A DNA stretch of 64,000 nucleotides from assembly GCF_044704955.1 (NCBI RefSeq), contig NC_091989.1, forward strand, positions 35,898,001-35,962,000, written 5' to 3'. Position numbers and translations under genes: made by a program. This DNA is from Pristiophorus japonicus (Eukaryota). How positions within the stretch are numbered: the stretch's first letter is position 1; every line of letters begins with the position of its first letter. Below, one piece after another: positions 979-23,713 of the stretch. The notes under the pieces are model-generated. The model was not told the DNA's origin, ran no database searches, and saw only the letters and a program-made list of their open reading frames with translations.

Positions 979-1021
979 TTCATCTGTTTGACTATTGTGC
1001 TTTTACCCGATTCACCAGCAC
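979..1021 (-). CDS. G-protein alpha subunit (Gi/Gt class) coding exon 2, P-loop
   Basis: Minus strand reads ttttcttcatttcatgttacag|GTGCTGGTGAATCGGGTAAAAGCACAATAGTCAAACAGATGAA|gtaagt = (G)AGESGKSTIVKQMK. It is 43 nt, phase 1 to phase 2, the known size and phase of GNAI/GNAT/GNAO exon 2. The remaining exons must lie left of the window. Confidence 0.96.
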
Positions 1022-1404
1022 CTGTAACATGAAATGAAGAAAATAAACAAGACAATAACTCACTTTAATATATTACTCTCCAATGTACTTTCCGGCGAGG
1101 CCGAGAAGCCCTCTGGTTTGCTCGCACTGTTCTTATTTGAGCAAAGAAGACCACCGCTAGCAAATAAGGGAGCCTGAATCTGTGAAAATGTTAAACAATT
1201 CTAATTTATCTGCAATGGGGAAGCTACTGCTACAAATAATATGAAGGGATTCAAGAGACAAGAATACGTGTTGATAAAGAAAGGATGTAATGAGAAGGCA
1301 GCAGGCTTGGGTTAAAATCAATGAAAAAGTAGTGAGTTTTTAGGCCCTAGTATTCTTTTCTTGTTCTTAAAATGTGGTACATTTTCTAAAAACTGGGAGG
1401 ATTT

Positions 1405-1795
1405 GGGGAACTGGATGCTCCAATGGGTCAGACACTGGCCTTTCTCCTCTGGGGCCCCGAGTTCAATTCCTGTGTCTGCTGGCTGTAAGGGTTCTTTGCG
1501 AAAGCTCAGTCCCAAGAGGGTCTCGGCCTCCAGCAGCAAACTGCACCTGATTCAGGCATTGCTTGGCAATCTCACTCCGTGAGACCCCAGGAGGGCTAGT
1601 GTGGGTAAAGGAGAACTGGTGCAGTTGGAGTTGTTCTTCTGGGATTGTGGCTGTTGTGGTGTTGGGGCAGGGTAGAGGGAGCGTGGCTGTGGTGCACCTG
1701 ACCAGGGAGTGCTTGCTGCTGACACTGGGGATCTGAACTTGGAAGAACTCCATTGCCCAGCACCAATACCCTCACCTTTATGAGTAAAAAAAAAG
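1405..1795 (+). mobile_element. Degenerate tRNA-derived SINE-like repeat
   Basis: A-box-like gctccaatggg and B-box-like gagttcaattcc, with an A-rich end at ~1786-1800. Family not assigned. Confidence 0.4.
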
Positions 1796-2004
1796 AAAAA
1801 TCAGAAGACTAAATGCAACAGATTATATTGAAAGGCTAAATGAAATAAAAGGGAGTAATGTAAAACAATCTGTAATACAGGAGCTGCTGCATCCCAAAGA
1901 TCAATGCTAATTTAAGTGACCTAGAGGATTGAGAATTACTTGATTGCTTCTATCGAACTGCATTATTAAAACAATTGGTGCAAAATCCACAATAGCTAAA
2001 TACA

Positions 2005-2240
2005 CCATATGGTGTGGTACTGGGCCACATAGAGCAGGGACGTTCCAGATTCAATCACTGGTCTGGGCTGATTTAGCGGAGGTCATAATCTGGGTACTGC
2101 AATTGGCCACAGCATCCACTAGGTAAGGGAAAGGTTCAATATCAGGTATCCTCTTCTGGAAAATGTAAATCTCTGCGACTCGAGGGGAGGACAAGATTAG
2201 GTTTGGTTTGTTGCTGACATGCAATTAGCCTGTGGACACT
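2005..2240 (+). mobile_element. Old SINE-like repeat (related to 5905-6240)
   Basis: Shares the motif order cccagatt ... ttagc ... aattggcc ... gaggaca with the copy at 5905-6240. Confidence 0.45.
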
Positions 2241-2242
2241 CA

Positions 2243-4078
2243 GGCTGAAATCTTCCCAGCCCTGCCAGTGTGGGTTTGGATGCAGGCCTGTTATCAAATT
2301 GGCCCTGATTGACAACGGGGCAGAAGTCTGCTCTGAACCCACCTCCGTCTCAGTTTCTCAAGTATCGGGTCTGCCTGCGGATCGCAGACCCAACATCAAG
2401 CGGTGGGCCAGTCAATTAAGATGCTTAAGAGGTAATTTGAAGGTATTTAAAAGGATCTTACCCAGGCACTTACCATTTTACCAAGTTTTCAACGCTAGGT
2501 AAGTATATTTGGTTCTCAGTGGCTCTCCATTGCTTTGGTTAGTTGACAGCTGCAAAAGTGGTATAAAAGCTATCATTTCATAGCTGTCCACTTTCCAAAG
2601 TCAGAAGCTGAAGCCTTCAGGATTTGGAAGAAACGTTTGAGCTGTATGCAGTTTGGAAGTGTCTGTAATGAACTCTCTATCCAGTGTCACCTCCTTGGAG
2701 CAACCTCTCTCACCATTGACAGATCGCTTCTGTCGTCTCAACTTCATCTACCATCTATTCCAGCAGCATCGGTGCCCTTGAAAAAAATCTCACCTTGTCC
2801 TCAGAATCCCACCATGATCAGCCCCAACACCAACATCACTAAACACACCAGCATCACCAACAACAATACCAACCTTCTCCGCAATCACCTGATGCTACCC
2901 AGGGCACAGGGCATCAACACATTGCTGCCCGGGAGGTCAGGGATGGCCTCACCATGGCTACATTGACTTCACTTGAAGCTGTGCACCCTGGCTGCCACAT
3001 GATGCACCAGGTTGGCACCACCCCACACCAGCAGCATACATCATCCCTGCAATATCCAAGCCATTCCTTTCACACGCATCACCATTGTGCAGGGTACCCT
3101 TATGTCTAACCACTCACTATAACTCACTAAGCCGCTTCCAAAGGAGTAAACACAAATCTGTCCAAGAAGGCAAATTGTTCAAAATAAAGATTTCAATGTT
3201 TGACAACACATTAGCAGAAACTCTACATGAACATTGGCTAAAAGATCCAAGTGCTTACCATTGTGTGTTGTTAGTTGTTATGAATGGGCAAGGATGAGGG
3301 TGAGTGCGAGAGGTGGCTAGTGAGATGGGGAAGTGATAATATACATAGCGAGAGAGAGGGATGGTTGGAGGTGCAAGATAAGTTGGTGTGAGTAATGAAA
3401 TGCAGGAGTAGGGTAGGGAAGGCAGAGTGATGGGGATGTGATGAGAGGCACAGCAGGATGAGGTTGAGTGTGGCTTTGCAGTAATGTTTCGTGATCTGCT
3501 GAGATCATTGAAAGGTTTGCATCACTGCAGCCAGGTCCTCCTGATGAAATCCCTGCTTGTGCCCTCCTGTGCAATGTTCAACCAGGATGCGTTGGTGTCC
3601 TGGGGAGGTCTCTTCTGCCCATTGGAAGGGAAGAGAAGCTCCCTGCGACTGGAGGGAGTCATGGGAGAGCCTGGGTGCAGCTGTGCACCTTTTTGCAATG
3701 CTTGTCAGTGTTTGCAACACCTCAATGCTGTAGAATACTGACAGACCAGGTCCCTTTAAGGAAACCGGCTGATGACGCTGTGATATCTTATGTATGACCT
3801 CACAAACACACAGGTTTTAAGATGGCTGATAACTTCAGGAACCTGTCAGGTGACCTGTTCCCACTTTATTGTTGTAAACAGCAATGGCTGCATTACCAGT
3901 GGGTGGAGCAGACGCATCATCAGATGACGTCATCAGATCCGTTCCCTGTTAATTGGCCGGGAACCTCACAGGGCGGGCTTAACAAGCCCAATGACGGTAA
4001 AATTGTGTTGAGGTTGGAGCCGGGAGCGGGTTCCCCACACACCACCAATGTCGGCCAATGTTAGCGAAATCACGGCCA
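2243..4078. mobile_element. Highly decayed putative DNA transposon (Harbinger-like)
   Basis: GC-richer block with imperfect GGC-terminal inverted ends (ggctgaaatct / gaaatcacggcc). No intact ORF. Confidence 0.3.
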
Positions 4079-4779
4079 ACATGTGGCTGCAGTCACCCAA
4101 GCTCACTAAAGGTTTCTAAATTGTCAGTGTTTTCAGATGTTGGTGGGCAAATTAATTTCCAAGCTGCATCCTGTGTTTTGCAGGAGGAATATATTAAAAA
4201 CTCAATGAAAGATCTGTAGGAAGTTACTATTTAATAATTCATTTCTCAGATATGCCTGCCTTTAAAGTCAGACCAACTATATAGTCCTTAATAGTCATCT
4301 TACCTCATTAAACACACCAATTTTACATTTATTCCATCAACAAATTATTTACTGATGCACTATCCCATTGAGGCAAAATTGAGTGTGCTGTATTTATCAA
4401 TATATATTCCAAAAGAAACAAATATTTGGATCGATGTTAAAGTTAGGGATTGACGCTGTTAAGGGACCAGAGATCAGTGAAATGATACAAACATTAAACG
4501 CCTTTCAAAAATTCACTTTCATTAACAGGAAACTTTCCGGCCAGCTAGAATGTCTGACAGATAATTATTTTTACATTAGCTAAATAAATCGACAAAGCTC
4601 AGCACAAAGACGTCTTTGTTTAAGGGAAATCGATCTTGGAGCAATAAATCATGCCTCTGCCAAATCACCAGTGCAGTTCTAGTTCAGTCTAAGTGACAGG
4701 TGATCAAAGCAACATTACTCCAGCAAATTGGACCTCGCCATTAAGGGGAAGGTGGGGGGGGGGGGGGGGGGATGCGCAG

Positions 4780-4995
4780 ACCTATAATATGTTTGAACAA
4801 GGATCCCCAGCTGCTTTTCTCCACTCCCTCGGAACATCCAGTCCTGATGAACCACAATTTCCTCCATTTAAACATTGGGAAGACCAAAACCATTGTCTTT
4901 GACACCTGTCATAAAGGTACTCCCTTGCCACTGATTCCATCCCCCAACCTGTCCACTGTCCTTGTTGACCCTGAGCTGAGTTTCTGACCCCATAT
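4780..4995 (+). mobile_element. L2 LINE RT fragment
   Basis: MNHNFLHLNIGKTKTIVF resembles the L2 WM-x-x-N-F-L-x-L-N-x-x-K-T motif. Confidence 0.6.
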
Positions 4996-4997
4996 TA

Positions 4998-5215
4998 AAA
5001 TTATAGAAGTTTACAGCATGGAAGGAGGCCATTTCGGCCTATTGTGTCTGCGCCGCCCAACAAGAGGCTATCCAGCCTAATCCCACTTTCCAGCTCTAGG
5101 TCCGTAACCCTGCAGGTTATAGCACTTCAGGTGCACATTCAAATACTTTTTAAATGTGGTGCGGGTTTCTGCCTCTACCATCCTTTCAGGCAGTGAGCTC
5201 CAGACCCCCATCACC
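4998..5215 (-). mobile_element. CR1 3' end fragment
   Basis: WSSLPERMVEAETRTTFKKYLNVHL...GYGPRAGKWD plus 3' UTR. Confidence 0.8.
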
Positions 5216-5269
5216 AAGATGGTGAGCAAAGGGAAAACTTTAAACAGGTCCACCATAGCAAGTCTCCAT

Positions 5270-5670
5270 CTCCACTTCCTACTCCAGACACTTGAGCACA
5301 TAATCGAAGTTGCGACTTCAGTGTAGTACTAACAGAATTCTGCACTGCCGGAGATGCCATCTTTTGGATGAGCTGTTAAACTGAGTCTCTGTCTGCGCTC
5401 TTTGGTGGACGAACAAAAGATTCCATGGCACTAGTTGAGGAAGAACACAGGAGTTTTCCTGCTGTCCTGGCCAATACTTATCCCTGAAGCAACATCACTA
5501 TCTGGTCATTATCTCACTACTCTCTGTGGGAGCTTGCTGAGCGCAAATTGACTGCCTTGTTTTTGACATTACAACACTTCAATGGTACTTCATTAGCTGT
5601 AAAGCACTTTGGGACATCCTGAGGTCATGAAAGACTCTATATAAATGCCACTTCTTTCCTTCTTTTTTCT
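5270..5670 (+). mobile_element. DeuSINE (SacSINE1-like), degenerate
   Basis: Deu-domain text gatgagctgttaaac...gattccatggcacta...tgtcctggccaatacttatccct...gtgggagcttgctgagcgcaaattg and the tail tatataaatgcca. Confidence 0.75.
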
Positions 5671-5904
5671 TTCCCTGCTGTTGTGACTCTCCAGCAGTGT
5701 GCCAGGAGCCCACCTCCAAATGACCTCAGGGCTGGATATACAGTCGGAGTTAGCAGAATACCTTCAGGGCAGGCAGAAGTCCCCCCTACTCTGGAAATGC
5801 ATTCCAATCCAGGCATGGGTGGGAGAGCAGAAGTCCGAGGCCAAGATCTAAGTTCAAAGATAAAGATACAGCTCATATCCATCATTCATTCCAGCCGCAA
5901 CCAC

Positions 5905-6240
5905 AGCTTACGGCTCGCTTTGTGGCTCAGAGGCTTCAGCCATTGAGTACTACAGTCATACAGAGAAGGAAGGTCCCAGATTTTATCCCCGTTTTATATT
6001 GGGTTAGCAGTCATCTCAATAGGGATGTCTGTTAGGGTGCTATAATTGGCCTCAATCACTTCAAAGTTTCTGCTCCACATCTTTCTCCAGCTGCCCCTGC
6101 TTGAAGTGTCTTTGTATGGACACCGTATGAGGACAGATCAGACTCAACTATCAGCCTGAAATAACCTACTGGCACTCACGATGACGTTCACACAATAAAT
6201 AATTGTTGGGAGACGAGGGGAGGCAGAGAAAACTGGCAAG
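5905..6240 (+). mobile_element. Old SINE-like repeat
   Basis: A-box-like tggctcagagg; body similar to 2005-2240. Confidence 0.45.
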
Positions 6241-6644
6241 AACTTTTTTTTAAATTGGAAGCATTTTCATTTCTTAAAAGTAGATTTTGCAATAATTCAT
6301 GGTAATCACATTCCTCGTGTTTACAGTCCAGTCATGATCGCATAATATATTAAACAAATTACTTAAAAAGGATAAAGACTAAAAAAATTTATAACACTGC
6401 ATTGAAATTCTGTGTACTATACTTCATATTATTACTGTACTCACGTGGCTATATGTAACTTGTTATTTATAACCTTGAGAGCAATTAGAGCAAGCTTTCA
6501 TGGCTACTGAAAGTGCCCGGAATTCTGCAAACTGCTTCAAGTGGGTCTGCATGGAATTAGATTTCATCAGATCATCTGCTCGCAAAATTGGTGTAAATTG
6601 AGAGCAGGTTGCTCCTTTGCCAGAATAGTGTTAAATTCAGTTAC

Positions 6645-6762
6645 CCAACAGCAGTAACTTCACAGTCCTGGCATCTTTCTTTGCATCTTCTTGGATTTCC
6701 TTTTCCAGTTCTTTAGATCTCCTGGCTAATTTCTTATTTTCTGAGCTTGCTGCACTGCCCAT
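6645..6762 (-). CDS. G-alpha first coding exon 1B, transducin/gustducin (GNAT2/GNAT3)-like
   Basis: ATG at 6762; translates [40 protein letters not shown]. It is 118 nt, ends in a phase-1 donor G|gtaact and has an MGxxxS myristoylation motif. By eye it is 30/40 identical to each of human GNAT2 and GNAT3 N-termini as recalled, so the paralogue is not assigned. Confidence 0.95.
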
Positions 6763-7549
6763 AATTTAATGGATCTATTTTGAACCAACTGAGCTGTATT
6801 CGAGACTGAGAAAATATCAAACCGCAAGACCTCCAAAGAGTGGATGTTAAAAGTAAAGCCTTAAGCCCATTTCCACTTCGGCAGCACTGCCTTCTGATCA
6901 GTCTGTTTTGATCCATCATGTGACCCAAGGAATCTAGCAGGATATTCACACATGAAAAGTACCTTTGAAAAAGCTCACTGTGGCGTGTCAGAGATGTAAA
7001 AGAAAGATGACAGAAGTGATCATTCACAGTAGACTTCTGCCGCCAGTTTGAGAGGAGTAAGTGCAATTCTGTTATCAGGTTTCAATAGAAAAATAAAGTG
7101 GGCTATATTAAAACAGGCAGGATTTCTCAAAGTATTTTAATGCAGCTGTTAAAAGAAATATGTAATTATTTAACTTTTGAAAAGAATGAAGTCTACTTTT
7201 GTCTTCATTTTTAGATTTTGTTGCCTTTTTCATATTGTCATGTTTCTTGATATATTTTCATAACAGAAACCATTGCATGAAACAAATAACCTGCTCTACT
7301 AATAAAGGCCAATTCCAGTCCCTTCATCGTCACACTATCTTTTCTTAACTTTGAGTGAGAGGATGGATCCTTACTCTGGAGTGGGTGGCCTTTGTAGTGG
7401 ATCTGTCAAGCTGCATGAGGAGTGTGTATTGCTGGGGAGAATATTCATAAAATCTAGTCCTTGTGTCCTTTTGTAAAAGTCTCATCTGCAGTATTCTGCA
7501 ATTCACGTGCTTTCAGTCTTTCACTATTTCTGGGGTTTTTCTGTATATA

Positions 7550-9229
7550 GCCCCGTATTTTGCAGCCCCTATGAACTTACGAGGTGCACACACGCCCGTA
7601 CAGGCCGCACAGGTTCCGGGTTTTTGCTTGCGAAGCACATGCTCAAAAACACGGAACTTGCGATCTGTCAAAAATCTTCTCGAAAGATCCAACACATCCG
7701 CAGGGAAAGGGTATCCGTGGCTGGAGACTTGAGCTCTGTGCCCAATTTCTGCCCAGCGAAAGGCCATGAAATTCTTACGGTGGCTATTTAAACGCTTACG
7801 GTGGTAAGCCTGTTTTTACCACAGTAAGAGTTTAAATGAACATAAAAATTAATCATTTCAACATTAAAACACCTGAAAATAAGGCACGGTTATTTTTAGC
7901 CCCTTTAAAACATTTACATTAATTTAAATTTTTGTGTTAAATATTTAATTAAATAGCATTTTAATTCATTTTAAATATGTTACTTATTTATTTATTACAT
8001 TTATAAAATGTATTTATTTTATTTATTTGATGTGTATTGTTTGGGGTCATCATCGTCATAGGCAGTCCCTCTAAAAGTGAGTTTTCAGGTGACTGTACAG
8101 TCCAATGCGGGAATTACAGTCTCTGTAACTGGTGGGACAGACAGTGGTTGAAGGAAAGGGTGGGTGGGGAGCCTGGTTTGCCGCACGCTCCTTCCGCTGT
8201 CTGCATTTGGTTTCTGCTTGCTCTCGGCGACGAGACTCGAGGTGGTCAGCACCCTCCCGGATGCTCTTCTTCCACTTTGGGCAGTCTTGGGCCAGGGATT
8301 CTCAGGTGTCGGTGGGGATGTTACACTTTATCAAGGAGGCTTTGAGGGTGTCCTTATAGTGTTTCCTCTGCCCACCTGGGGCTCGTTTGCCGTGCCGGAG
8401 TTCCGAGTAGAGCGCTTGCTTTGGGAGTCTCGTGTCCGGCGTGCGGATGATGTGGCCTGCCCAACGGAGCTGGTCGAGCGTGGTAGTGCTTTGATGCTGG
8501 GGATGTTGGCCTGGGTGAGAACACTGATGTTGGTGCATCTATCCTCCAAGTGGATTTGCAGGATCTTGCGGAGGCATCGTTGGTGGTACTTCTCCAGCGC
8601 TTTGAGGTGTCTATTGTATATGGTCCACGTCTGAGCCATATAGGAGGGCAGGTATCACTACAGCCCTGTAGGCCATAAGCTTTGTGCCAGATTTGAGATC
8701 CTGGTCTGCAAACACTCTCTTGCTCAGGCGACCGAAGGCTGCGCTGACACACTGGAGGAAGTGTTGGACCTCGTCATCGATGTCTGCCTTTGCCGATAAT
8801 AGGCTCCCGAGGTATGGAAAATGGTCCACGTTGTCCAAGGCCGAGCCGTGGACTTTGATGACCGGGGTGGGGAGCAGTGATGTCTGGCGGGGTCAGGTTG
8901 GTGGAGGACCTTTATCTTACGGATGTTTAGCGTAAGGCCCATGCTTTCGTATGAACCCGGTGAAGGTGTTGATGGTATTCCCATTCATGCTCATAGGGAT
9001 TCCGTACATGAATGGAGATCTTCTTTCATTCGTTGGGCCAGTGCACGTGATTCCAGGGGTGCTTGCGAAACATACGCGCCCCGGGATACGTGAGCCTTTA
9101 CCCGTGGATACACAGAGAGGTCCAGGAGTGCGAGTCGCCATGGATCCCGAGGCCACAGGTAGGCACGGATCATCTTTGCGGATCAGAGTCGTTGCCCCGC
9201 AGGAAGCCTCCAATCGCAAATTCAGGGGC
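7550..9229. mobile_element. Non-autonomous TIR DNA element interrupted by an RTE LINE
   Basis: Imperfect terminal inverted repeats gccccgtattttgc / gcaaattcaggggc, CpG-rich subterminal arms and an AT-rich core. Confidence 0.5.
8046..8975 (-). mobile_element. RTE (BovB-like) LINE 3' fragment, frameshifted
   Basis: VDHFPYLGSLLSAKADIDDEV; LRWAGHIIRTPDTRLPKQALYSELRHGKRAPGGQRKHYKDTLK; tail gagggactgcctatgacgatgatga. Confidence 0.9.
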
Positions 9230-10260
9230 ATTATTTAATAAATGACTGATCCAACTGCTGAAGGCAAATATTCCGATAAGCAGGTTTTTTCATGGCATCC
9301 CAGCACCACCAATAAAGCAGGGCGGATCCCCCAGTGTCAGAAGCTGTCCTTGTATCACTGGGACCTGGTTTGTTCCAGCATCCTCAGTGAACACGTACCA
9401 TCAACATCAGTGATTGCACTTTCTGTTGCTTAGCAACATGCAGGTTCAAAATATGGTCTTCACAGTCTCTGGCTGCAATGTTTTGACATACCACCCAATC
9501 TTAGAAAAAGGTATTAACAAATAAATAAAAATAAATAAAAGCACTGGGCTGAGAAATTCCCCTTAAAATAAATATATTTTTCAGCTTAATTGAACGAGTC
9601 CTGTTGTTATTTGAGAGTTATGTTCCTAATAGCTTCATATCTTAACAAATGCTCGGCTGACAATTGTAGTTGCAAAGGATATGAATAATTAGTGACTACT
9701 TTCAAACAGCAAATTAAACTGTCAGAAAATAATACAATATAGTAGAATGCAATTACATGGCAATTAGAAATGATGGTAAAAAAACTCAATGAACATTGTT
9801 TGCTGCACAAACCACTGACAAAATGACAGGTAGCTAGATGTTTGTGCAAATACATTTCTATGTGTATATCATATTGTAAGTGATTCTTCCAGCATTAGAA
9901 CCGCAGTCTGTTCAAATACCAACACATACCTAATGTCTACTGAGGTTATATTGAGGCTTTATACTATGCTGGTCAGAGCACACTCAGAGAGGCTTCTCTA
10001 CCATTTTGGCCAGGCTTCAAAAGAGGCATACATGCATTGAGAAGAGTTCACAGAAAATTAATAAGACACCAAGTGTAAACGGGATGAACCATCCATGAGG
10101 AACGATTTGAGAAATTTAACATGCATTTAAATGACAAGTTATACACCTGTCTCCTGGTCTTTCGCATATTTTGAACTCTCAGATCAGGTTAACCTTAATC
10201 ATTCTGTGGTTGCTGACTTCCATTCCCTGTACGTTTCTAGGCCTTGGGGTTTATGAATAC

Positions 10261-13110
10261 TGTAAAGTCCTGTCCCCTCAGTACAGATTCACACGAGGCA
10301 TGTAGTGAAGTCAAGGTCACTCTGGACCTGCACCTTTTATTTCACAGCTCTGGAATGCTGCACTTGTCTGAGACCTGTCCTTATATACCTGTCTCTTGCA
10401 AGTGCACCCCCGGTGGTAAGGTATGCTGGTGGTTACAGGTCAAATCGTATTACAGTCATGTATAGCATGTTGGGATACAGTTATATATAATAATGTAAGA
10501 TACATGACATCACCCTCCCCCAAGGTCTTATTGTCTTTATAGGTTTAGTCTCTCAGGTGGTCTACGTTCTCGCGTGGAGCGTCTGAGTTGTGGTTCAGTT
10601 GTTTGCCTTGGTGTCTGTTTTTCTTTGGGTGTGGTTGCTGGTATCTCGCCTGGGCTGTCTGTTTCGATTGGTGTGATTGTTGTTGACATGTATCTTACAT
10701 TATTATATATAACTGTATCCCAACATGCTATACATGACAGTAAAAAGATATGACCTGTAACCACCAGCATACCTTACCACCGGGGGTGCACTTGCAAGAG
10801 ACAGGTATATAAGCACAGGTCTCAGGCAAGTGCAGCATTCCAGAGCTGTGAAATAAAGGTGCAGGTCCAGAGTGACCTTGACTTCACTACATGCCTCATG
10901 TGAATCTGTACTGAGAGGACAGGACTTTACAGTGGCGACGGGTTAAGGGATTGCAGAATCCACAGAATGGCGAACAACGGATCAGATGTAAAGTACAATG
11001 CGGGAGATAATTGGGAGGACTTTATAGAAAGGCTCCAGCAAAGCTTTGTAACCAAAGACTGGCTGGGCGACGATACGGCAGACAAGCGAAGAGCCCATCT
11101 CTTGACCAGCTGTGGCTCGAAAACATACGCTTTAATGAAGGATCTGTTGGCACCCGAGAAACCAGCAAGCAAGTCGTTTGAAGAATTGAGCACACTGGTA
11201 AGAGACCACCTGAAGCCAGTGAGCAGCCTACACATGGCCAGACACAGGTTCTACAACTACAGACGCTGTGTAGGCCAGAGCATACCCGACTTCGTGGCGG
11301 AACTTCGGAGGTTGGCTAATTTATGTGAGTTCTCCGATGAACTGAGGAGAGAAATGCTGAGAGACTTTTTCATTGAAGGAATAGGCCACACAGGCATATT
11401 CCGAAAGCTCATAGAGACCAAGAACCTGACCTTAGAGGCAGCAGCACTGGTTGCACAGACATTCTTGGTAGGGGAAGAAGAAACGAGGTTGATTTACAAT
11501 GCAGGTACGACAACTAACGAAATAATGGAACAAGGAGTTCACAGCATTAGAACAGCTGCTACCCCCACACACAGACAAAACTGGCAGAACAGGCTTTCGA
11601 CAGCAAGCAGTAGCAACAGAAGCCATCAAGGGCCACAGGAACGGCCGTTCACACCTCATCAACCCACAATGCGAGCAATCAACTACAAACTGAGAGAAGC
11701 TCAAGAGAGATCAGCCAGACGCAGCTCATTCTTGCAAGCAGTCTGTGCTGGAGGTGTGGGGGTGGGCACTCATCAAGGGAATGTCGATTTCAGCAGGCTG
11801 TTTGCAGGAACTGTGAATATACAGGGCATTGGGCCCGCATGTGCAAAAAAATGGCAGCTCGGCTGGTATACGAATCGGATGGGTCGGAAACCAGACCAGA
11901 AGACGGTGGGGACAGTACCCGGGACACCGATGTACAGCGGGTCAACACGATCAATGGCCGCTGCTCCTACAACAGGACGCCTCCTATAATGATGAGGGTC
12001 CTACTCAACGGGATATCTGTCAACATGGAGCTGGATACAGGAGCGAGTCAATCTCTCATGGGCGCTCAACAATTTGAACAACTGTGGCCGCATAAAAGAG
12101 ACAGACCAAAACTCACAAGGGTCGACACCAAACTAAGGACCTATACCAAAGAAATCATACCAGTTCTCGGCAGCGCCATGCTCTCTGTCACACACAAAGG
12201 GACAGTGAACCGACTTCCCCTGTGGATTGTCCCCGGAGACCCCCAGCACTGCTGGGGAGAAGCTGGCTGGCAAAACTAAACTGGAAATGGGATGATGTCC
12301 ATGCCATGTCATTAGAGGAACGGACCTCCTGCTCAACAGTTATAAAGCGATTTGAACATCTCTTTCAGCCAGGTGTGGGCACTTTCAAAGGGGCCAAAGT
12401 CAAAATCTACATCACACACGATGCTATACCGGTCCATCACAAGGCCAGAGCTGTACCCTATGTGATGAGGGAAAACATTGAACACGAACTAGACAGGCTT
12501 CTGCAGGAAGGCATTATATCACCTGTGGAATTTAGCGACTGGGCAAGTCCCATCTTCCCAGTCATGAAGCCTGATGGATCCGTACGAATCTGTGGGGACT
12601 ACAAATCTACCATAAACAGAGTCTCCCTACAGGACCAGTACCCGCTTCCCAGAGCGGAGGACTTATTTGCTACATTGGCTGGAGGTAAACTTTTCTCAAA
12701 ATTAGACCTCACATCTGCGTATATGTTGCAAGAATTGACCGAGGAATCCAAGCTACTCACCACCATCAACACACATTGAGACCTTTTCATGTACAATCGA
12801 TGCCCATTCGGCATCAGGTCATCAGGTCGGCAGCTGCCATATTCCAGTGCAACATGGAGAGTCTGCTCAAGTCCATCCCGGGGACGGTTGTATTTCAAGA
12901 CGACATACTTATCTCGGGCAGGGACACCGACTCCCATCTCCGTAATTTGGAGGAAGTACTAAAGCGGTTGGATCGGGTAGGCCTACGAGTCAAGAACTCC
13001 AAGTGCAACCCCGGTGGTAAGGTATGCTGGTGGTTACAGGTCATATCTTATTACAGTCATGTATAGCATGTTGGGATACAGTTATATATAATAATGTAAG
13101 ATACATGACA
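10261..13110. mobile_element. Rearranged Ty3/Gypsy LTR retrotransposon with three LTR copies
   Basis: Minus-strand full LTR 10261-10509, then PPT and pol end (RRSTRERRPPERLNL); plus-strand LTR 10684-10931 with PBS gtggcgacg and gag-PR-RT; minus-strand partial LTR 13000-13110. Flanks aatac / aacac are a 5-bp TSD with one mismatch. Confidence 0.9.
10967..13006 (+). pseudogene. Gypsy gag-pol (gag, CCHC knuckle, protease, partial RT), frameshifted and truncated
   Basis: Gag (WEDFIERLQQSF...LRDFFIEGI), protease LDTGAS, RT motifs VRICGDYK, KLDLTSAY and FQDDIL. The frame ends at KNSKC where LTR sequence takes over. Confidence 0.9.
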
Positions 13111-13305
13111 AACACCAACGCAAAACTGCTGGAAAACTAGAGGAGCATTCTGCCGCCAATGTTTATAGAGGAGAGTTCCTGCTTTGGTGCACCTGATTAA
13201 TCAGAGACCAGTGCCCTGTACTTGATTGAAATGAACTGGCAAGCACCATAGCAACTGGTGTCATCACTGCAAATAATTGTGTACGTGCTGTGGTTGCCGA
13301 ATATG

Positions 13306-16300
13306 AAGGGCTTTGCACTTCACATCCAGATTTATATCCAGAATAGTATTTGTAGTAATCGAGATGATGTAACCGATTGTTCAACCACACTTGTGCTAAG
13401 AGCTGGCCAGCCCTTTCAGAATTCTTTCTAGTCGTGGTTCTCTGGTTTCAACTGAAGTGTTCATGTGGTAGGACCATGGGAGAAGTGTGCAAGCCATCGC
13501 TTCACAGCATTGTATGCCAAGTGTCCTGATGAATGGCAGACAACAACAACAATATCTCCACGTTGTCCCTTCTGAAAGGCACAGCTGCACAAGCTAGCTC
13601 TTTGGAAAGCATAGATTGTCATTTGGGCTGCCATTGACAGTGATGCTAACAGTTAGCCTCATTTTTCCACGAAGAATATAGATATAACCTTTTCAAGGAT
13701 CCTTTTATCTTCAAAGCATTAAAGTCATATGAATACCAGTGAGCAGGGTAGGAATCATGGCAAAATGCATTTGGGTTTATAATCTCTGGATCCTAAAACA
13801 TTAGTGTCATGTATGTATGCTTGGGGTTACTAGCCACCAGGTGGCACCACTATTGGAGGTCATTGGGCTGTATGCATGTGTGTGCGGCCCAGGTATAAAA
13901 GGCAAGCCATCATGTAATGTAATCACTTTGGGCCATAATAAAGCAGAGCCAGGTTTGTACCTGTGTTAGTTTACAGTATTCGGTCTATCGAGTTATTACA
14001 TACATAACATTTGCCGACGAGGTAACTTAAGAACCTTTGCATGCAAAAATGAGCACAATTGGAATTCTGGAGAGATTCATGGAGGGAGAGGACTGGGCAG
14101 ATTTTGTAGCTCGCCTGGACCAGTACTTCATGGCCAACAAAATGGAGGAACCCACTGACGCAGTTAGGCACAGGGTGGTCTTCCTCACGGTTTGCGGTCC
14201 GAAGATCTATGGACTCATAAAGAATCTTCTCTCGCCTGCAAGTCCAACGGACAAGGACTATGAGGAATTGTGTGCTCTGGTATGTGACCATCTCAAACCA
14301 GAAGAAGGCATCATCATCTCATGATATCGATTCTACAAACACGTTCGTTCTGAGGGCCAGGATGTGTCGGAATTCGTTGCCGACCTAAAACGTCTAGCTG
14401 GACCGTGTAAGTTCGAAAACGCGTTGGGAGACATGCTGCAGGACTTTTTTGTAATCGGCATCAACCACGAGGTGATCCTGCGTAAGCTACTGGCGGCGGG
14501 GACGCTGGATTTGAGCAAGGCCATCACGATTGCCCAGACATGCATGGCGATGGACAAAACCTTAAAGCAGGTATCATCGAAAAATCGGAACTCGGCAAGT
14601 ACTGTAAACAAGATTGTATCGTCGTTTGGCAGAGTTGCATATGGCAGGGCCTACACGACTGCGGATGCAAAACCTGTGGCTGCCCAAAGTCCACCGACAG
14701 GAATGAATCCGATTTCATCGTGGGCATTGTGGGGGCAATCATCGGCCTCATCAGTGTAGATTTAAACAGTACATTTGTAAAGGCTGTTCGAGACTGGGGC
14801 ATCTCCAGCGCATGTGTCCGCAACTGAGCAACCGTGCAGCGACACACCACATGGAGGATGATGACCAGTATAGCGCAGATCCGGATAAGCGATCCGAGAT
14901 ACCAGAGGAGGAAGTGTATGGACTGTATTCGTTTCTAACAAAGAGCCAACCGATAATGATTAATGTGGAACTTAACGGTGTGCCGGCACCGATGAAATTG
15001 GACACGGGTGCGAGTCAATCAATAATGAGCCAGAGGATATGCGACTATGGCTGTAAGGCCTAACCTGAGTCCAGTCAATGCCAAGTTGCATATGTACACT
15101 AAAGAACTCATAACGGTGATTGGCAGTGAAGTAGTCAAGGTGTCGTATGATGGTGCGGTTCATGATTTACCATTATGGATTGTTCCAGACAATGGTCCAA
15201 CGCTGTTCGGCAGGAATTGGCTCGAAAAAATCAAATAGAATTGGAACGATATCAAAGCGTTGTCATCGGAGGATGATACTCCATGTGCTCAAATGCTGAG
15301 CAAGTTCCCCTCGCTGCTTGAACCAGGCATCGGCAATTTCACGGGAGCCAAGGTGCAGATCCACGTGGACTCGGATGCAAGACCCATCCATCATAAAGCT
15401 TGGGCGGTTCCGTACATGATGAGGGAGAAGGTCAAAATTGAACTGGACAGACTCCAGCATGAAGGGGTCATATCACCGGTCGAATTTAACAAATGGGCCA
15501 GCCCCATTGTTTCTGTGTTGAAGAGGATTTTTGGAGACTACAAGATTACGATCAACCGAGTTTTGAAACAGGATCAATACCCATTACCGAAGGCTGATGA
15601 CCTGTTTGCAATGCTAGCCGGGGAGAAGTCGTTCATTAAACTGGATCTGACATCGGCCTACTTGACACAGGAGCTGGTCGAGATGTCGAAGAAACTTACG
15701 TGCATCAACACTCATAAAGGACTGTTTATCTACAACAGGTGTCCTTTCGGAAGTCGCTCGGCTGTAGCCATATTTCAGAGGAACATGGAGAGTCTACTGA
15801 AGTCCATCTCTAGAACCGTCGTGTTCCAAGATAACATACTGGTCACAGGTCCTGACATCGCTGAACATCTGAACAATCTGAAAGAGGTTCTACATCGCCT
15901 GGACAAAGTGGGACTCAGACTGAAACATTCGAAGTGAGTCTTCATGGCACTGGAAGTAGAATTCCTGGGGAGGAAAATTGCTGCTGATGGCATCAGGCCT
16001 ACGGACTCGAAAACCAAAGCCATCAAAAATGCACCCAAGCCTCAGAATGTGACGGAGCTGTGTTCGTTCCTTGGTCTACTCAACTACATCGGTAATTTCC
16101 TACCTAGATTGAGTACTTCGTTAGAGCCACTGCACATGCTGCTAAGAAAAGGCAACAACTGGTTTAGGGTGCATCTCAAGATAGAGCTTTTGAGAAAGCT
16201 ACTAATCTGCTTTGCTCTAACAAGCTGCTGGTACATTATGATCCATGTAAGCGTCGAGTATTGGTCTGTGATGCTTCGACATATTGAGTTGTTTGAGTGC

Positions 16301-18625
16301 TCCAACAAGCTAATGAGTCGGGTAAACTACAACCTGTTGCATATGCTTCTAAAAGTTTGTCAAAAGCGTAAAGAGCCTACAGCATGGTAGAAAAAGAAGC
16401 ATTAGCCTGTGTGTGTGGGGTTAAAAAGATGCATCAGTACCTGTTTGATCTTCGGTTTGAACTGGAAACAGATCACAAGCCACTCATTTCATTGTTTTCA
16501 GAAAACAAAGGTATAAATAGCAATAGTTCCTCATCCAGAGGTGGGCGCTGACATTATCTGCCTATGATTATGTCATTCGCCATAGACCTGGCACCGAGAA
16601 TTGTGCCAATGCACTGAGCCATCTGCCGTTGCCCACACCGGAGGTGGAGATGCCACAACCTGCAGACGTACTGTTAGTTATGGATGCTTTTGAAAGTGAA
16701 GGAACCCCTGTCATGGCTCAACAAGTTAAGACCTGGACCAGCCAGGGCCCAATATTATTGGTTGTGAAACGTTGTGTCCTTAGTGGTGATTGGTCTGCCA
16801 TAGCCAAGCAAATGGGTGATGAGACCAAACCTTACAACCGTCGCAAAGACGAACTATCCATTCAGTCAGATTGTTTACTGTGGGGTAATCGTGTTGTTAT
16901 GCCTAAGAAAGGCAGAGAGAAATTTGTACATGATCTACATAGCACTCATCCCGGTATTGTCATGATGAAAGCCATTGCCAGGTCTCATGTATGGTGGCCT
17001 GGAATTGATTCTGATCTGGAATCATGTGTGCATCAGTGCAACACTTGCATGCAGCTAAGTAAAGCACCAGTGGAATCGTCGCTGAGTCTGTGGTCGTGGC
17101 CATCTAAACCATGGTCCAGGATCTACATCGACTTTGCAGGTCCCTTCCTGGGAAAGATGTTTTTAGTTGTGGTGGATGCATATTCCAAATGGATAGAGTG
17201 TATAATCATGTCATCCAGTACATCCACAGCTACCATTGAGAGCCTTCGTGTCATGTTTGCCACTCATGGTCTACCCGAAAGCGTTGGAAGCGACAACAGA
17301 TCTTGCTTCACTAGTCTGGAGTTTCAAAAGTTCATAAAACTCAATGGTATCAAACATGTGAGGTCAGCACCATTCAAACTTCATCTACTAGTCAAGCAGA
17401 GCGTGCTGTCCAAACCATCAAGCAGAGTATGAAACGTGTAACTCAAGGTTCACTGCAGACTCGCTTATCATACATATTGCTTAGTTACAGGACAAGACCC
17501 CACACGCTTGCCGGGGTCCCCCCTGCTGAACTATTGATGGAAAGGTCTCAAGACCAAGCTCTCTCTTGTCCACCCTGACTTGAACAATCATGCTAAATAC
17601 AGACGTCAAAAGTCAGCAGTGGTATCATGATTGCGCTGCTGTGTCACGCGACGTTTCTGTTAACGATCCTGTGTATGTACTAAATTATGGTCAAGGTCCC
17701 AAGTGGATCGCCAGTACTATTATGGCCAAGGAGGGTAACAGAGTGTTTCAAGCTCAAGAATAGGCAAACATGCAGGAAACATGCTGATCAGATAAAGCTG
17801 CGGCACACGGATGAACTGGAACAGTCTGAGGAAGACACAATCAGTGACCAACCAACCTACCCTCAGTCATCAGAGGACTCTGCTGTCATCAATGAATCTG
17901 GACTTTCAATCCCTGACATGGTCATTGCCACTCCCATCAGATCGGCTGCCCAGCCCCCAGTCATACCAGACTCAGAACACTCGCCCAAGGCTGGAGTTGA
18001 ACTGAGACGATCAACTCGTGAGCGGAAAGCCCCGGACCGACTCAATTTGTAAAAAGACTGTTACTAATATCTTAAAGGGGGATATCGTCATGTATGTATG
18101 CTTGGAATTACTAGCCACCAGGTGGCGCCGCTGTCGGAGGTCATTGGCTGTACGCAGAGCCAGGTTTGTACCTGTGTTAGTTTACAGTATTCAGTCTATC
18201 GAGTTATTAAATACATAACAACTAGTAACTCCTAATTGTTCAGTTGCAATACAAATATTTTCCTGGCTACAGGCAATAATCTCAATGCTATATTCTACCT
18301 TCAAAGATACGCAGAGATGTAACGGTGATAATCAATTTTACGATGGACAAAGAGCACCATTTTCTATCATTGGGATGTCAAATTTGATACAATAAAGTCG
18401 TCATTTAGCACTTTGCAAATCAGCCGAAACTCAGAAATGTAGTAAGCAATGAGGCAAATAGTAATAAACTTCAGGAGGACATAGACAGGCTGGTGAAATG
18501 GGCAGGTACATAACAGATGAAACTTAACACAGAGAAGTGTGAAATGATACATTTTGAAAGGAAGAATGAGGAGTGCCAATATGAACTAAATGGTACAATC
18601 CATATATTTGAAGGTGGCAGTACAA
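13306..18625. repeat. Left arm of ~0.9-kb inverted duplication (13306-13804 plus 18221-18625), split by a Gypsy element
   Basis: Reverse complement aligns to 43470-46453 apart from later insertions. 13391-13495 equals revcomp 44486-44590 and 13583-13663 equals revcomp 44002-44082 exactly. Confidence 0.9.
13805..18220 (+). mobile_element. Full-length decayed Ty3/Gypsy LTR retrotransposon
   Basis: 5' LTR 13805-14009, PBS-like ttgccgacgag, gag/PR/RT/RNaseH/integrase in Gypsy order (HHCC HSTHPG...CNTC, IDFAGPF, SDN), PPT aaaggggga, 3' LTR 18086-18220 and TSD attag/actag. Many stops and frameshifts. Confidence 0.95.
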
Positions 18626-19257
18626 GTATTCACAATTTCCTCTAAGTGCCCATTAAACACAGAAATCCTGCAGTTGCTGCCAGTAAATCCCTGCTCCTGC
18701 AGATGGAAATCTTACAAATCACGTGAACATCTATTTTTTACACTCTAATCTCGCTGTAAAAAACCCCGGAAAGTTAAGCTTTGTTAAATGAGGTGCAATC
18801 AAGTTTTTAACAATGTACTAAGTTATAATTGCTGCTGAACAACCTCTCTATCCCTGAAAAACAAATTTATATTCGTGGAATGTCACATTTTTCCATTATG
18901 GAGATTTTTTAGATAATAAAATTTTTTAGAGTTTGTTTATGATATTTCGGCTTCTTTATTTCGCTCTGTAAAATGGTTAAAAAGTGAAAGATAATCAATG
19001 CTTTTTACTTCCTAGTTTACTGTCTGTGAGAATTCTTCAATGTGATTGGCTGCATAGCCTGCTTGATGACATCACTGTTGCTGGATGCTGGAGATCCCAT
19101 TTCGGTGACGCCAGAATGAAATTAACATCGCTTAATCTTTGTATGCAGCTTTCTTTGAGGTCAGCTGACTGCAAAATCCAAGCCTATATGCCTTTAAAGC
19201 ATTTCCCCACTTCATGCTAGAGGTCCCTATCAGGCCTGAATAGCATATTTTCACTTA

Positions 19258-19450
19258 AAACATAAGAGCATAAGAAATAGGAGCAGGAGTGGGCCATTAC
19301 GCCCCTTGAGCCTGCTCCACCATTCAATACGATCATGATTGATCTGATCTTGGCCTCAACTCCACTTCTCTGCCTGCTCACCATAACTCTTAACTCCCTT
19401 ATCACTCAAAAATCTGTTTACCTCCACTTTAAATATATTCAATGACCCAC
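19258..19450 (-). mobile_element. CR1 3' tail
   Basis: cataagagcataagaaataggagcaggagt is the reverse of a CR1 microsatellite-like tail and 3' UTR. Confidence 0.75.
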
Positions 19451-19534
19451 TTCATTATAATTTTCTCGTCATACTAGTCATATAAAAGTATTCGCCATTT
19501 CCTCTAATTGGGCAGTGTGATGAAAAATTTATAA

Positions 19535-19710
19535 CAATTTGCAACAATGCTAGGCTTTCTTATCTTATCAGTTTACCTGAGCATCTAACAGGAACTGGGT
19601 AGTTTCAATTTTGTTGAACGTAACACAAAATCTTGGCTTTGTAATAATGCTTTGAGTTCATAGGAATAGAACTTCTGCTGAGGTTTCCTGACCCCCTGGG
19701 AGATCACTGC
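19535..19710 (+). repeat. Local direct duplication, copy 1 (copy 2 at ~21312-21475)
   Basis: Shared text ggctttcttatc...ttacctgagcatc...acaggaactgg...tttgtaataatgcttt...taggaatagaacttctg...tttcctgacc...ctgggagatca. Confidence 0.8.
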
Positions 19711-19744
19711 AAAAAATATTCAAGGTGATTTGATTGCAAACATA

Positions 19745-20090
19745 AAAAGACTTGCATTTAAATAGTGCTTTTCCTGACCTCAGGATGTGCCAAGGTACTT
19801 TATAGCCAATAAAGTCACTGTTGTATTGTAGGAAATGCATTCAGACTATGGATAATGACCAGATATTCTGTTTTTGATGGTGTTGGTTGAGGACATCGGG
19901 GATAACTCCCCTGCTCTTCTTCAAACTAGTGCCATGGGATCTTTTACATCCACCTGAGCGGGCAGACATGGCCTCGATTTAACGTCTCATCCGAAAGACG
20001 GCACCTCCGACAGTGCAGCACTCCCTCAGCACTACAAACGAGTGTCAGCTTAGATTCTGAGCTCAAGTCTCTGGAGTAGGTCTTGAGCTG
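19745..20090 (-). mobile_element. DeuSINE (SacSINE1-like)
   Basis: Reverse of the Deu domain (gtgccatgggatcttttacatccacctgag...tttaacgtctcatccgaaagacggcacctccgacagtgcagcactccctcag) with tail gacttgcatttaaatag. Confidence 0.85.
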
Positions 20091-20134
20091 ACACCTAAAC
20101 CTGATGAACATGCTCATGTCAAGTGCTTATTTGA

Positions 20135-20567
20135 AGACCGGAATGTTCCAGAATCTGTACACCGGGCCGATCCGTGGCGGGGTCGTCCGGAAACCGGAAA
20201 ATTTTCCCAAATCCGGACTCTCCCGCCTCGGCCCGACCTCCCCTGGCCTCGGCCCGACCTCCCCCAGCCTCGGATCACCCCTGACCTCGGCCCGACCTTG
20301 GCCTGACCTCGGCCCAACCAACATCCACGACCTCCGGTAGCCCGACCGACCTCACCCAGCCTCGGCCCGACCGACTCCCCCGACCACCGGCGGCCTAACA
20401 CCACCGCCCCCCCCCCCCCCACCACCAACACCCGGCCCGACCGACCCCCAGAGCCCCCCCCACCTACCTTCCTCGGCCCAGGCAAAGACGTTCCGAAATC
20501 CGGAAATACCCGGAATCCGGAAAGGCCTCAGTCCCGAGGTTTCCAGATTTCGGATGTCACACCTGTA
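20135..20567. mobile_element. GC-rich MITE-like insertion with degenerate ctcggcccgacc tandem repeats
   Basis: Repeated ccgga motifs at both ends, about 8 ctcggcccgacc units and an acacctgta terminus (Tc1/pogo-like end). The left end is unclear. Confidence 0.5.
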
Positions 20568-21311
20568 TAACAAGTAATAATCCTAAACACTGCAAAAGTA
20601 AACAACTCTATTTATAGATATAGGAATAAGACGATCAGTGATCAAAATTTTCACTTCCCTTCCATGAATATCAGATCGGTCAGACAATTTCTTATCTAAA
20701 TGAAATATCCAGAAACATTTCTCAACATCAATATTTGTGGTCTGTAGAATTAGAGATCGGGAGGGATGCTTTGTATCCATGGTAATCTTGTTGCTCCTTA
20801 ATATTGTTCACTGCCATTTTTGAACATAAACTGAACTTTAGAAATGAATCATGAAGTAACGACTTCAAAGAGCAGCAACATCAAAGGTTAGCTATTTCCA
20901 CTTTAAACAGCTGCCCTGTTCTTTTGGTGTAACATGAAAAGTCTTTCGTTTAAGAAATGGCTCAAAGCCAACATGAGGAGTTTAACTACTTCACCACTGT
21001 ACAACTTCGCACACCATTTCAGTTCATCTGAAAAAACAACCATGTGCCACTTTTTGTGAACCAAACATCTCTGGAGAGTTACAAAACACCGCTGCAAAAC
21101 ACAGCAGAGGCCATTTTGACACTGTGCGATAGTGCAAAACGGGTGGTAGTGACTCGGCAGCCCATTGTACATCTCGCCCAATTTTTATTTCCATTGGAGT
21201 CAAAAGAATTCTAATTCTAATTGGGGCCAGTCCCCTTCAACATGTTTGAGGATATGCTTTTAACAAAATACACCTCTATCTTCCACATAACAACTATCCT
21301 GTGACTTGAAT

Positions 21312-21475
21312 AACAATAAGAAATGTTGTTGGGCTTTCTTATCTTACCTGAGCATCTTAACAGGAACTGGATAGTTCAATTTTGTTTTACCTAACACAAT
21401 ATTTTGTAATAATGCTTTGGGTTAATAGGAATAGAACTTCTGTTGGAGTTTCCTGACCTCCTGGGAGATCAGTGG
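21312..21475 (+). repeat. Local direct duplication, copy 2
   Basis: See 19535-19710. This copy carries a minus-strand CAG|GTAAGA donor-like site at 21347. Confidence 0.8.
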
Positions 21476-22604
21476 AAGCCCTGGAGAAATGGCGTACGCA
21501 GTCAGTTACATAGTTTCTGCAGGGTTTCCACTGATTTTCCACCCAAGTAATAGCAGGATATCTGGAGTTTTAGAAATTCTATCTGTAGTGTTTGAGCACT
21601 TAATGAATTCACCCCATAATCTACTCTCTCTTATTTTAATAGAGGAGTTTACCCCACAGCATAATTTCAAAGTCCTTGCTCAATGCTGTGACTAGATGTT
21701 GGCTGAGTGGACCAAAATTACCCAGCTTAGTTCTGAAAATATGACCAAGGCTTATTTCTGTGGATTACACTGGTGGCCCCTGAACCATAGTGCATCACTA
21801 TTCTTTGCAGAAGTTCTGACAGAAATACAGTACCTCAACTGGGATGAGTAGCTAATCTCAGTCAGATTTTTGTCTTGACCCAATTCAAACTGGTCAGAAA
21901 TCAGTTAATTATTTTTCTTGCTATATTTGCAAATTAACTTACCCTTTGTTAAGGCATAATTATAGAGCTTACTAGATAATTTACTGTATACATTGTTGGC
22001 ATGGACCTTAAAAGTGCATAGTATGAATGTATTTTCTGAATGCAAAATGATCCCCTTTCTACAGTATCAACATAGGGCTGGCTGTCGTACAATTTGCCAC
22101 TTGTGCATAAAGCACTTGAAATCCTGATTCAGGTTCAAGGGCTACAAGAAATAACACAAAGGTTTATGTAACTCAGTTATGGATAATGTTATCAATGTCA
22201 ACTATTCATTTCTCAGCCATTTGATTAAAAATATCTTTCAATAGAACCGATTCAAACAACTATGGTGCTGGAAAGAAGTTGGAGAGCACATAAATCCCAT
22301 TTATTTGTAGGGAATACAAATATCAATCTGTATGTGCAAATCTGTATTATTGAAGAATGGCCTAGTGTATATCACTGCACTTAAATTCATTAAATCACTA
22401 ATAAATACTGAATTATATAATAAGTAAGCACAGTATTGTGTCTTAAAAATCAATAATTTAATGAGTCACTTGTTCCCACATATTTTTCCAGTGGACTAAG
22501 TGTTGTCTTACTTGCTTCATTCTATTATTTTAACCAAAAGGTTGATTGTCACAGGGATACTTCCAGTTGGAAAGGAGCACTTTAATCAGGGTGTCACTAC
22601 TCAC

Positions 22605-22722
22605 CAAGCAGCAGAAGCTTCACCACCAGAGCTGTTTTTTGCCCTTCCTGCTGCAGTAGTCTGTCGATAGCTTTTGATTTTCTGCTGGCTTCTGACCTTC
22701 TGCTACTGCAGCCGCTGCCCAT
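22605..22722 (-). CDS. G-alpha alternative first coding exon 1A, divergent Gi/Go-like N-terminus
   Basis: Strong Kozak ccagccATGG at 22722; translates MGSGCSSRRSEASRKSKAIDRLLQQEGQKTALVVKLLLL-G. It is exactly 118 nt with a phase-1 donor G|gtgagt, an MGxxxS motif and no disablement. Confidence 0.9.
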
Positions 22723-22841
22723 GGCTGGGCATAAACTGAAGGACATCAACACTTGTGCAGCATTTGGTGAGTGACTCCAGTATTGTATGGATGGTTCCCC
22801 CAGTGCTCAATGAAAATGTAATTACAGCAGAGCAGAGGTGC
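22723..22841 (-). other. 5' UTR portion of exon 1A, bounded by a splice acceptor
   Basis: ttgttctcctctcatttcattacag| acceptor (AG at 22843-22842). In-frame stops lie upstream of the ATG. Confidence 0.6.
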
Positions 22842-23713
22842 CTGTAATGAAATGAGAGGAGAACAATACCCACCGCCAAGAGGATGGCCACTTAATCTTA
22901 TAATTCATACGCTAGTCAGGCAGATTTTAAATTACAGGAAACAAACCACTGTTCACTGAATATTGTCAGTTCAAAGACCTCTTACAAAATGTTACAGGTT
23001 TAATAGAAAAAAGAAATTGACTTCCAGTATGAGGGAATCAGCTATATTTTGACAGAGTTAGTGTGAAATAATACTGTTGGAAATTTTTTTTCACATATCG
23101 ACAAATATGTGCAAAGAATGTCAATTGCATTGAAACACGTCATCGTGTCAATGTAATGAAAATGATACAAAGCTCTTACAATGCGTCTCCCTTCTCAAAT
23201 AGAGAAAAAAACTTGTTGGAAACGTTTTCTTGAATGTAATGCCCCTTTAATTTGACCAGCAATAAAACAAGTCAACTATTGCTTGCGTACAAAAAATTAT
23301 TGGAAAAATATGTAATGGCTGAATGTATGTGATATTTACTGGAGAACACCCTGTGTAAACATCACACAATTAGCAGGGCCAAGCTAACACCAGAAAATAA
23401 ACGAACTAGGGAAATGATTTGGGGAACCATGGTTCCTTGATATACAAAAAGGAATTTACCAGACATTCATATAAAAGGTTTCTAACACAATTAATAGAAA
23501 CATAAATAGGAATGAGTTACAATGCAAAGTCACGGTTGCTATTTGGACAATAATAATCACTTTACACAGAATAAACAAAGCATAGTTGGAATGTTAGATT
23601 ATGATGAGAATGAATGCTGTGTGCTGATTAGTGAAAGAAAAATATATATTCAATTCAGTTTCAGCCAGAGAGCATTATATATTTTTTGACAATATTATTT
23701 GCTGCAACTTTCG

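Follow-up and report, generated by a model that had tools for sequence, protein, structure and literature searches.

The DNA analysed here (the window) is the 64,000-nucleotide stretch C13:35,898,001-35,962,000 of the 5.9 Gb genome of the shark Pristiophorus japonicus, and it contains 0 N gaps. The 5' part of a G-alpha gene lies on its minus strand, with two intact first coding exons, 1A and 1B, and one exon 2, to which the two likely serve as alternatives when the gene is spliced. In a phylogeny of exons 2-8 (47 rows), seven shark proteins form a clade with support of 100/100, and their sister is bony-vertebrate GNAT3 (97/95). Because of this tree and because its neighbours are GNAI1 and CD36, the gene is the GNAT3 (gustducin) ortholog. 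An earlier note on this DNA had called 1B GNAT2/GNAT3-like and lacking Cys; it is indeed a GNAT first exon without Cys, but GNAT2 falls away, as tree and neighbours identify the gene as GNAT3.

Exon 1B is the canonical GNAT3 first exon. Its coding part (6645..6762, minus strand) runs for 118 nt from an ATG at 6762 to 6645 and ends in the phase-1 donor G/GTAACT. Exon 1A (22605..22841, minus strand), recognized from the sequence and from catshark ortholog models, spans 237 nt from 22841 to 22605. It consists of a 119-nt leader with in-frame stops and 118 coding nt, which start at the ATG at 22722 (context gccATGg), encode a peptide from MGSGC... to VKLLLL-G, and reach the phase-1 donor G/GTGAGT at 22605. 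Exon 2 (979..1021, minus strand) encodes the P-loop (AGESGKSTIVKQM); it is read from 1021 to 979 between the acceptor ttacag, common to both joins, and the donor GTAAGT. The joins of 1A and of 1B to exon 2 are both in frame and stop-free. The earlier note had claimed two separate 118-nt ATG-initiated exons whose phase-1 donors suit an exon 2 at 979-1021, and both points hold, with the same coordinates and on the minus strand.

Exon 1A can be recognized as a G-alpha first exon without its own relatives. GNAI and GNAT proteins that lack 1A match it at E values of 4e-5 to 5e-4 (tblastn, 572 kb). Searched with an exon-1 profile, 27,625 stop-to-stop segments yield 1A at E 5e-16 and the best unrelated segment at E 3.1; the value for 1A is partly circular because catshark 1A peptides were in the profile. 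The 1A DNA is single-copy in the P. japonicus genome (1 match). Upstream of the leader lies an AG (22842-22843) that ranks in the top 1.9% by pyrimidine content among the 4166 YAG sites of the window. It is suggestive: 1A is therefore probably an internal exon, the second exon behind a non-coding leader exon and not the first transcribed. The acceptors of 1A and exon 2 are no more alike than chance allows, with 7/164 pyrimidine-rich sites scoring equally.

Two first exons could also mean two genes. Exon 1A is as far from 1B (17/39 identities) as from GNAI1 or GNAZ (19/39 each), as might be expected if it were part of a separate G-alpha gene whose other exons were lost or collapsed in assembly. 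However, the region offers no such exons. We searched 572 kb, from GNAI1 to ~160 kb beyond CD36, with five G-alpha queries (tblastn, E<=0.05) and found two G-alpha genes, one GNAI1-type (+) and GNAT3, the latter with two exon 1 matches and one set of exons 2-8. No second copy of exons 2-8 was found in the window, which has no assembly gaps, or in the 572 kb, which supports the earlier note's reading that both first exons feed one catalytic core. Additionally, two catsharks model 1A on a body orthologous to the P. japonicus GNAT3 body. These results largely refute a separate gene, which we regard as extremely improbable. Exons 3-8 lie outside the window, within 66 kb, from C13:35,897,4xx down to 35,831,96x. 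Exon 1B with exons 2-8 corresponds, exon by exon, to the public P. japonicus model 'G(t) alpha-3-like'.

Exon 1A is conserved in other sharks. A protein search with the 1A peptide, made with a word index of cluster representatives in which members were checked only in the clusters opened, gave 14 candidates, of which one matched: Scyliorhinus canicula XP_038667429.1. S. torazame XP_072327483.1 shares its cluster. In both catshark RefSeq models, exon 2 follows directly on the 1A ortholog. The earlier note had allowed that 1A might be disabled or absent in related sharks; it is present in the models of these two, and the window 1A is identical to them at 36/39 (S. canicula) and 34/39 (S. torazame) residues. 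The bodies are identical to that of the window gene at 278/315 and 280/315 positions, respectively, and the catshark body stands beside Mustelus in the exons 2-8 tree. A search of 1.84 billion representatives with the 39-residue 1A peptide gave no matches at E<=0.001, the query being too short for this to be informative. No 1A-type N-terminus occurs among the bony-vertebrate GNAT3 proteins retrieved.

Exon 1B is modelled in Pristiophorus, Heterodontus, Carcharodon, Cetorhinus and Mustelus, and the window 1B is identical to that of the four other sharks at 31-37/39 residues. Pristiophorus is a squalomorph; Scyliorhinus and Mustelus are carcharhiniform galeomorphs. As 1B occurs in Mustelus, 1A in Scyliorhinus and both in Pristiophorus, both exons predate the squalomorph/galeomorph split, which occurred more than 200 million years ago. 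This distribution argues that both were present in the ancestor of living sharks and still in early Carcharhiniformes.

Conservation is stronger in the coding part of 1A than in the DNA beside it. The translated leader adjoining 1A is identical at 14/23 positions, with gaps (Fisher p 0.027 vs S. torazame). If 1A had drifted neutrally on the P. japonicus lineage alone, its 36/39 identity to S. canicula would have p 0.018, a rough bound in which the leader is taken as neutral.

The GNAT2 (cone transducin) gene of the same genome shows what a dead gene looks like. It lies at C17:117,773,689-117,834,2xx and is decayed: exon 1 has a frameshift, the P-loop has changed A to T and K to T, the G3 motif is changed, exon 7 has a frameshift, and exon 3 is present in two copies, one with a stop and one with a 4-codon deletion. 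Its identity to Heterodontus GNAT2 is ~84% (282/337, summed over tblastn pieces), while six intact elasmobranch GNAT2 proteins are identical at 331-338/354 positions. Assembly error is unlikely to have caused so many lesions, and the decay fits a loss of cone vision. In contrast, exon 1A has no lesion.

The leader of 1A carries three upstream ATGs, which bear on the form of protein that 1A would encode. The one at 22746 (weak context ttgATGt) is in frame, 8 codons before the main ATG; it opens the stretch 22723..22746 (minus strand), seen in the sequence, and its Met is matched in both catshark models, an in-frame Met thus standing 7-8 codons upstream in 3/3 1A sequences. The other two, at 22763 and 22732, are out of frame and in weak context. 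Thus, 1A might be used mainly from the in-frame upstream ATG, or under control of the upstream ATGs, and give an extended, non-myristoylated or poorly translated product in which the N-terminal Cys is incidental. We consider this very unlikely, because the upstream ATGs have weak contexts while the main ATG has gccATGg, conservation jumps at the main ATG, and the M-G-x-x-x-S myristoylation signal that begins there is kept in all three sequences.

The same signal is present in 1B. The two N-termini differ at residue 5: all three 1A sequences have Cys5, and Cys is absent from the 22/22 GNAT first exons compared. Cys5 as the distinguishing residue, proposed in the earlier note, is therefore borne out. 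We predict that Cys5 of 1A is S-acylated. There are precedents for such an arrangement (papers are cited by PubMed Central number). Arabidopsis GPA1 is reported to be dually lipidated at G2/C5, with a myristoyl group on Gly2 and an S-acyl group on Cys5 (PMC5364179), and rod transducin given an additional lipid site, A3C, no longer translocates (PMC7591391). With regard to G-beta, D20 of Gi1 contacts G-beta R52, and R15 hydrogen-bonds G-beta in the structure of the Gi1 mutant G203A/A326S (PMC5022103).

Exon 1A retains G2 and S6 and, on the inner face of the alphaN helix, S16, I19, D20 and L23. The end of alphaN near beta1, a part that faces the receptor, is changed: 1A has the hydrophobic T30-A-L-V33 vs D/E-A-R-T. 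Modelled from an alignment, the catshark 1A form folds as an ordinary G-alpha, and its helix at residues 14-33 is of low confidence. A single-sequence fold was uninformative (predicted local distance difference test, pLDDT, 37).

Based on these observations, we propose a model of two promoters and one core, and consider it reasonably probable. A proximal promoter would give the canonical 1B form, which would be only myristoylated. An upstream promoter with a non-coding leader exon would give the 1A form. Because the myristoylation signal and the inner face of alphaN are retained, the 1A form would still bind G-beta-gamma. It would be doubly lipidated, however, and held more firmly at the plasma membrane through the extra lipid on Cys5. 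Through the changed receptor-side end of the helix it could couple to a different set of receptors in a different tissue, probably another cell type. The alpha5 C-terminus and the effector surfaces would stay those of gustducin in both forms. One gene would thus give two G-alpha proteins, distinguished by residues 1-39 alone.

Several points weigh against this model. Among seven annotated shark species, judged by their automated protein models, five have 1B only, two have 1A only and none has both. The catshark joins of 1A to exon 2 are likewise automated RefSeq models. Alternative use within one species is inferred from sequence and from models of different species. One public sequencing run gave only repeat-derived contigs over 5700-24800, with a depth of ~1 at 1B and no cover at 1A, and is uninformative either way. 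The promoter and leader exon of 1A were not located in our search, and motif scans for the promoter were at chance level, save for two cyclic AMP response element (CRE)-like sites vs 0.6 expected. The neutral-drift bound is not significant for S. torazame (34/39, p 0.12). In the 1A form, the alphaN helix is predicted with a pLDDT of only ~46-52, and the position of R15 holds K. The conserved in-frame upstream ATG may give a minor extended, non-myristoylated form. Finally, a recent loss of 1A use is compatible with all of the tests made here.

Such a loss would make 1A an intact relic. According to this explanation, the ancestor had both exons; catsharks use 1A and have lost 1B, while P. japonicus uses 1B and has recently silenced 1A. 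The either-or annotation (0/7 species with both) fits it, and so does the shorter isoform X2 of S. canicula, which starts at a Met in exon 2, if 1B has decayed there. Sharks evolve slowly, and a recently silenced exon would look intact in them. Nevertheless, although the deepest shark split lies between the two species, 1A of P. japonicus differs from that of S. canicula at just three residues, all conservatively, and its donor and start context are intact. For both exons to have lasted so long on the P. japonicus branch, each must have been used through most of it. Isoform X2 is explained equally well by a non-coding leader exon splicing past 1A, and isoforms of weakly expressed genes are often missing from automated models. 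We therefore hold differential retention to be rather unlikely, though it is the rival to take most seriously, and prefer alternative use of the two exons.

The origin of 1A is less easily read. The earlier note had called 1A Gi/Go-like, and as stated this is not supported. Of its 39 columns, 1A matches the commonest letter of GNAT alone in 6, of GNAI alone in 5, of both in 13 and of neither in 15. Residues 1-17 are nearer GNAT (6-10 identities vs 5-7 for GNAI), and only residues 18-33 are nearer GNAI (6-7 vs 1-5 for GNAT); the Gi/Go likeness is thus a resemblance over half of the exon. Go is the family least similar to 1A (14-16/39). The Cys of 1A is residue 5; residue 3, where a Gi/Go-type M-G-C has its palmitoylated Cys, is Ser. 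A 39-column tree (47 rows) puts the three 1A sequences outside the GNAT clade, where they form a long branch whose link to GNAZ is weak (60/57). Constraining 1A with shark 1B (approximately unbiased test, p-AU 0.376) or with all GNAT (0.332) is not rejected. At the DNA level, third positions are saturated (9-16/39), 1A is about equally far from all six P. japonicus G-alpha first exons (52-64/117), and its flanks have no similarity to the flanks of 1B or GNAI1.

The simplest reading of these sequences is that 1A is an old duplicate of the first exon of a GNAT locus that later diverged. We consider it improbable, but worth stating, that 1A is an N-terminal exon that predates the vertebrate genome doublings and the fixing of the 'ELEKKL' helix in all transducins, and that it is related to the N-terminus of GNAZ (described as a retrogene in PMC5896119). 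Exon 1A and GNAZ have in common the pattern S-S...E-A-x-R-x-S...I-D-R-x-L...E-x-Q. If this were true, the gustducin gene of sharks would still hold a switch between two anchors, the ancestral one, Gi/Gz-like with two lipids, and the one derived in transducins, with a single lipid. The gene would then be a living record of the loss of palmitoylation in transducins and a clue to the source of Gz.

In most respects, the shark gene is an ordinary vertebrate GNAT3. It agrees with alpha-gustducin genes, which have eight coding exons and lie tail-to-tail with GNAI1 (PMC5896119, PMC3826523), in clade, neighbours and exon borders, and 1B is its ordinary first exon. The shark gene differs in its second full-length alphaN exon, with a Cys, which is absent from the available accounts in those two papers. 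GNAS and GNAL are established cases of alternative first exons (PMC5896119); the GNAS XL-exon and the long GNAL first exon are likewise upstream, homologous to the 3' part of exon 1 and joined to a common exon 2. Shark GNAT3 has the same arrangement, with two first coding exons in the same phase and one exon 2. However, the GNAS and GNAL exons are long, variable extensions in the Gs family, whereas shark 1A has the same length as 1B (39 codons), has its own myristoylation signal and belongs to the Gi/t family. The mutually exclusive exons 7-8 of GNAO1 (PMC5896119) are also an exon duplication in a Gi-family gene that swaps a receptor-contacting part, but they are C-terminal, chosen by splicing and vertebrate-wide, whereas shark 1A/1B are N-terminal, likely chosen by promoter and so far found in sharks only.

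Two laboratory constructs come close to the 1A form. In an engineered gustducin made for structural work (PDB 8XQP), the Gi1 N-terminus brings an alphaN helix of the I-D-R type onto a gustducin core. The transducin mutant A3C (PMC7591391) has a transducin core with an added N-terminal Cys, but at residue 3, whereas that of 1A is at 5. The 1A form would be their equivalent in nature. The 1A form itself is already in RefSeq for catsharks, unremarked, as the automated predictions XP_038667429.1 (S. canicula, 'G(t) alpha-2-like isoform X1') and XP_072327483.1 (S. torazame, 'G(t) alpha-3-like'). These list no 1B partner and their names are silent on the N-terminus, and the P. japonicus model has 1B only.

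We found no published description of shark GNAT3 exon 1A, nor of any alternative first exon in a GNAT or GNAI gene, in a search that left most subscription journals outside its coverage. The available text of PMC5896119, a survey of G-alpha evolution, names a chimaera as its only cartilaginous fish and gives no alternative first exons for GNAT or GNAI, and the accessible parts of PMC4948711, PMC13769768, PMC10691231 and PMC6368271 contain nothing on exon 1A. We conclude that exon 1A is a real, conserved feature, and we infer its function as an alternative N-terminus.

A hallmark of transducins and gustducin is that they have lost palmitoylation. If our model is true, one gustducin core that can carry either anchor is a natural experiment on the role of the alphaN helix and its lipids in localization and receptor choice. 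The gene belongs to the earliest-branching jawed lineage with T2R receptors (PMC11641376). Our results also flag a misreading in annotation: for one ortholog, some shark models show one N-terminus and some another that looks unrelated to it. Many tissue transcriptomes exist for the catshark, a laboratory model (PMC11979771), and the question of the two exons can therefore be tested at once.

In the database models of other GNAT genes, 5' ends also vary. The lamprey GNATX model of Lethenteron reissneri (XP_061428886.1, 'isoform X1') has a different, acidic first exon, which lacks a myristoylation signal yet closes with IKLLLLG; the rest of the protein is the same as in L. camtschaticum GNATX. 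This exon is possibly a second, independent alternative first exon in the transducin family. Varanus komodoensis GNAT3 has many RefSeq isoforms in which unrelated upstream 5' exons are joined to exon 2, which suggests upstream promoter activity at the lizard locus. Squamate GNAT3 models (Varanus, Zootoca, Python) whose 5' ends differ were considered as counterparts of 1A and rejected, as these ends are not alphaN homologs. In P. japonicus, no second first exon was found in the 100 kb scanned at GNAT1 and at GNAT2, nor at GNAI1.

The gene order on C13 is GNAI1(+), GNAT3(-), CD36(+), with GNAT3 tail-to-tail with GNAI1. The plus-strand neighbour, which we take to be GNAI1 from its exon 1 peptide, lies at C13:35.605-35.649 Mb. 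CD36-family exons occupy C13:35.974-35.999 Mb (+), beginning ~53 kb beyond 1A; human GNAT3 also adjoins CD36. The GNAT3-GNAI1 pairing has been described before (PMC3826523, PMC5896119). GNAT1 (on C12) and GNAT2 (on C17) lie away from GNAT3 (C13). A GNAI2-type gene (+) and GNAT1 (-) lie tail-to-tail at C12:57.42-57.85 Mb, whereas PMC5896119 gives head-to-tail for this pair. In the catshark, GNAT3 and GNAT1 are on contigs of equal size, unlike those of P. japonicus, and chromosome fusions have been suggested in that species (PMC11979771).

GNAT3-like models occur in Pristiophorus, Heterodontus, lamniforms and carcharhiniforms, and none from batoids, carpet sharks or the chimaera is among the best 120 of 451 matches, although GNAT1/GNAT2 proteins of these groups do occur in the same collection. 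This is weak evidence that GNAT3 may have been lost in them. The catshark and lamniform GNAT3 models end in GCGLF vs DCGLF, in a receptor-contacting part, and in catshark GNAT3 the Lys after KQM is replaced by Thr and the Thr in front of DIIIK by Ala. Within the window, ~62% of the DNA matches repeats present in neighbouring loci, and at positions 57100-57826 a 42-bp unit is repeated in tandem 17.5 times with a 95% match.

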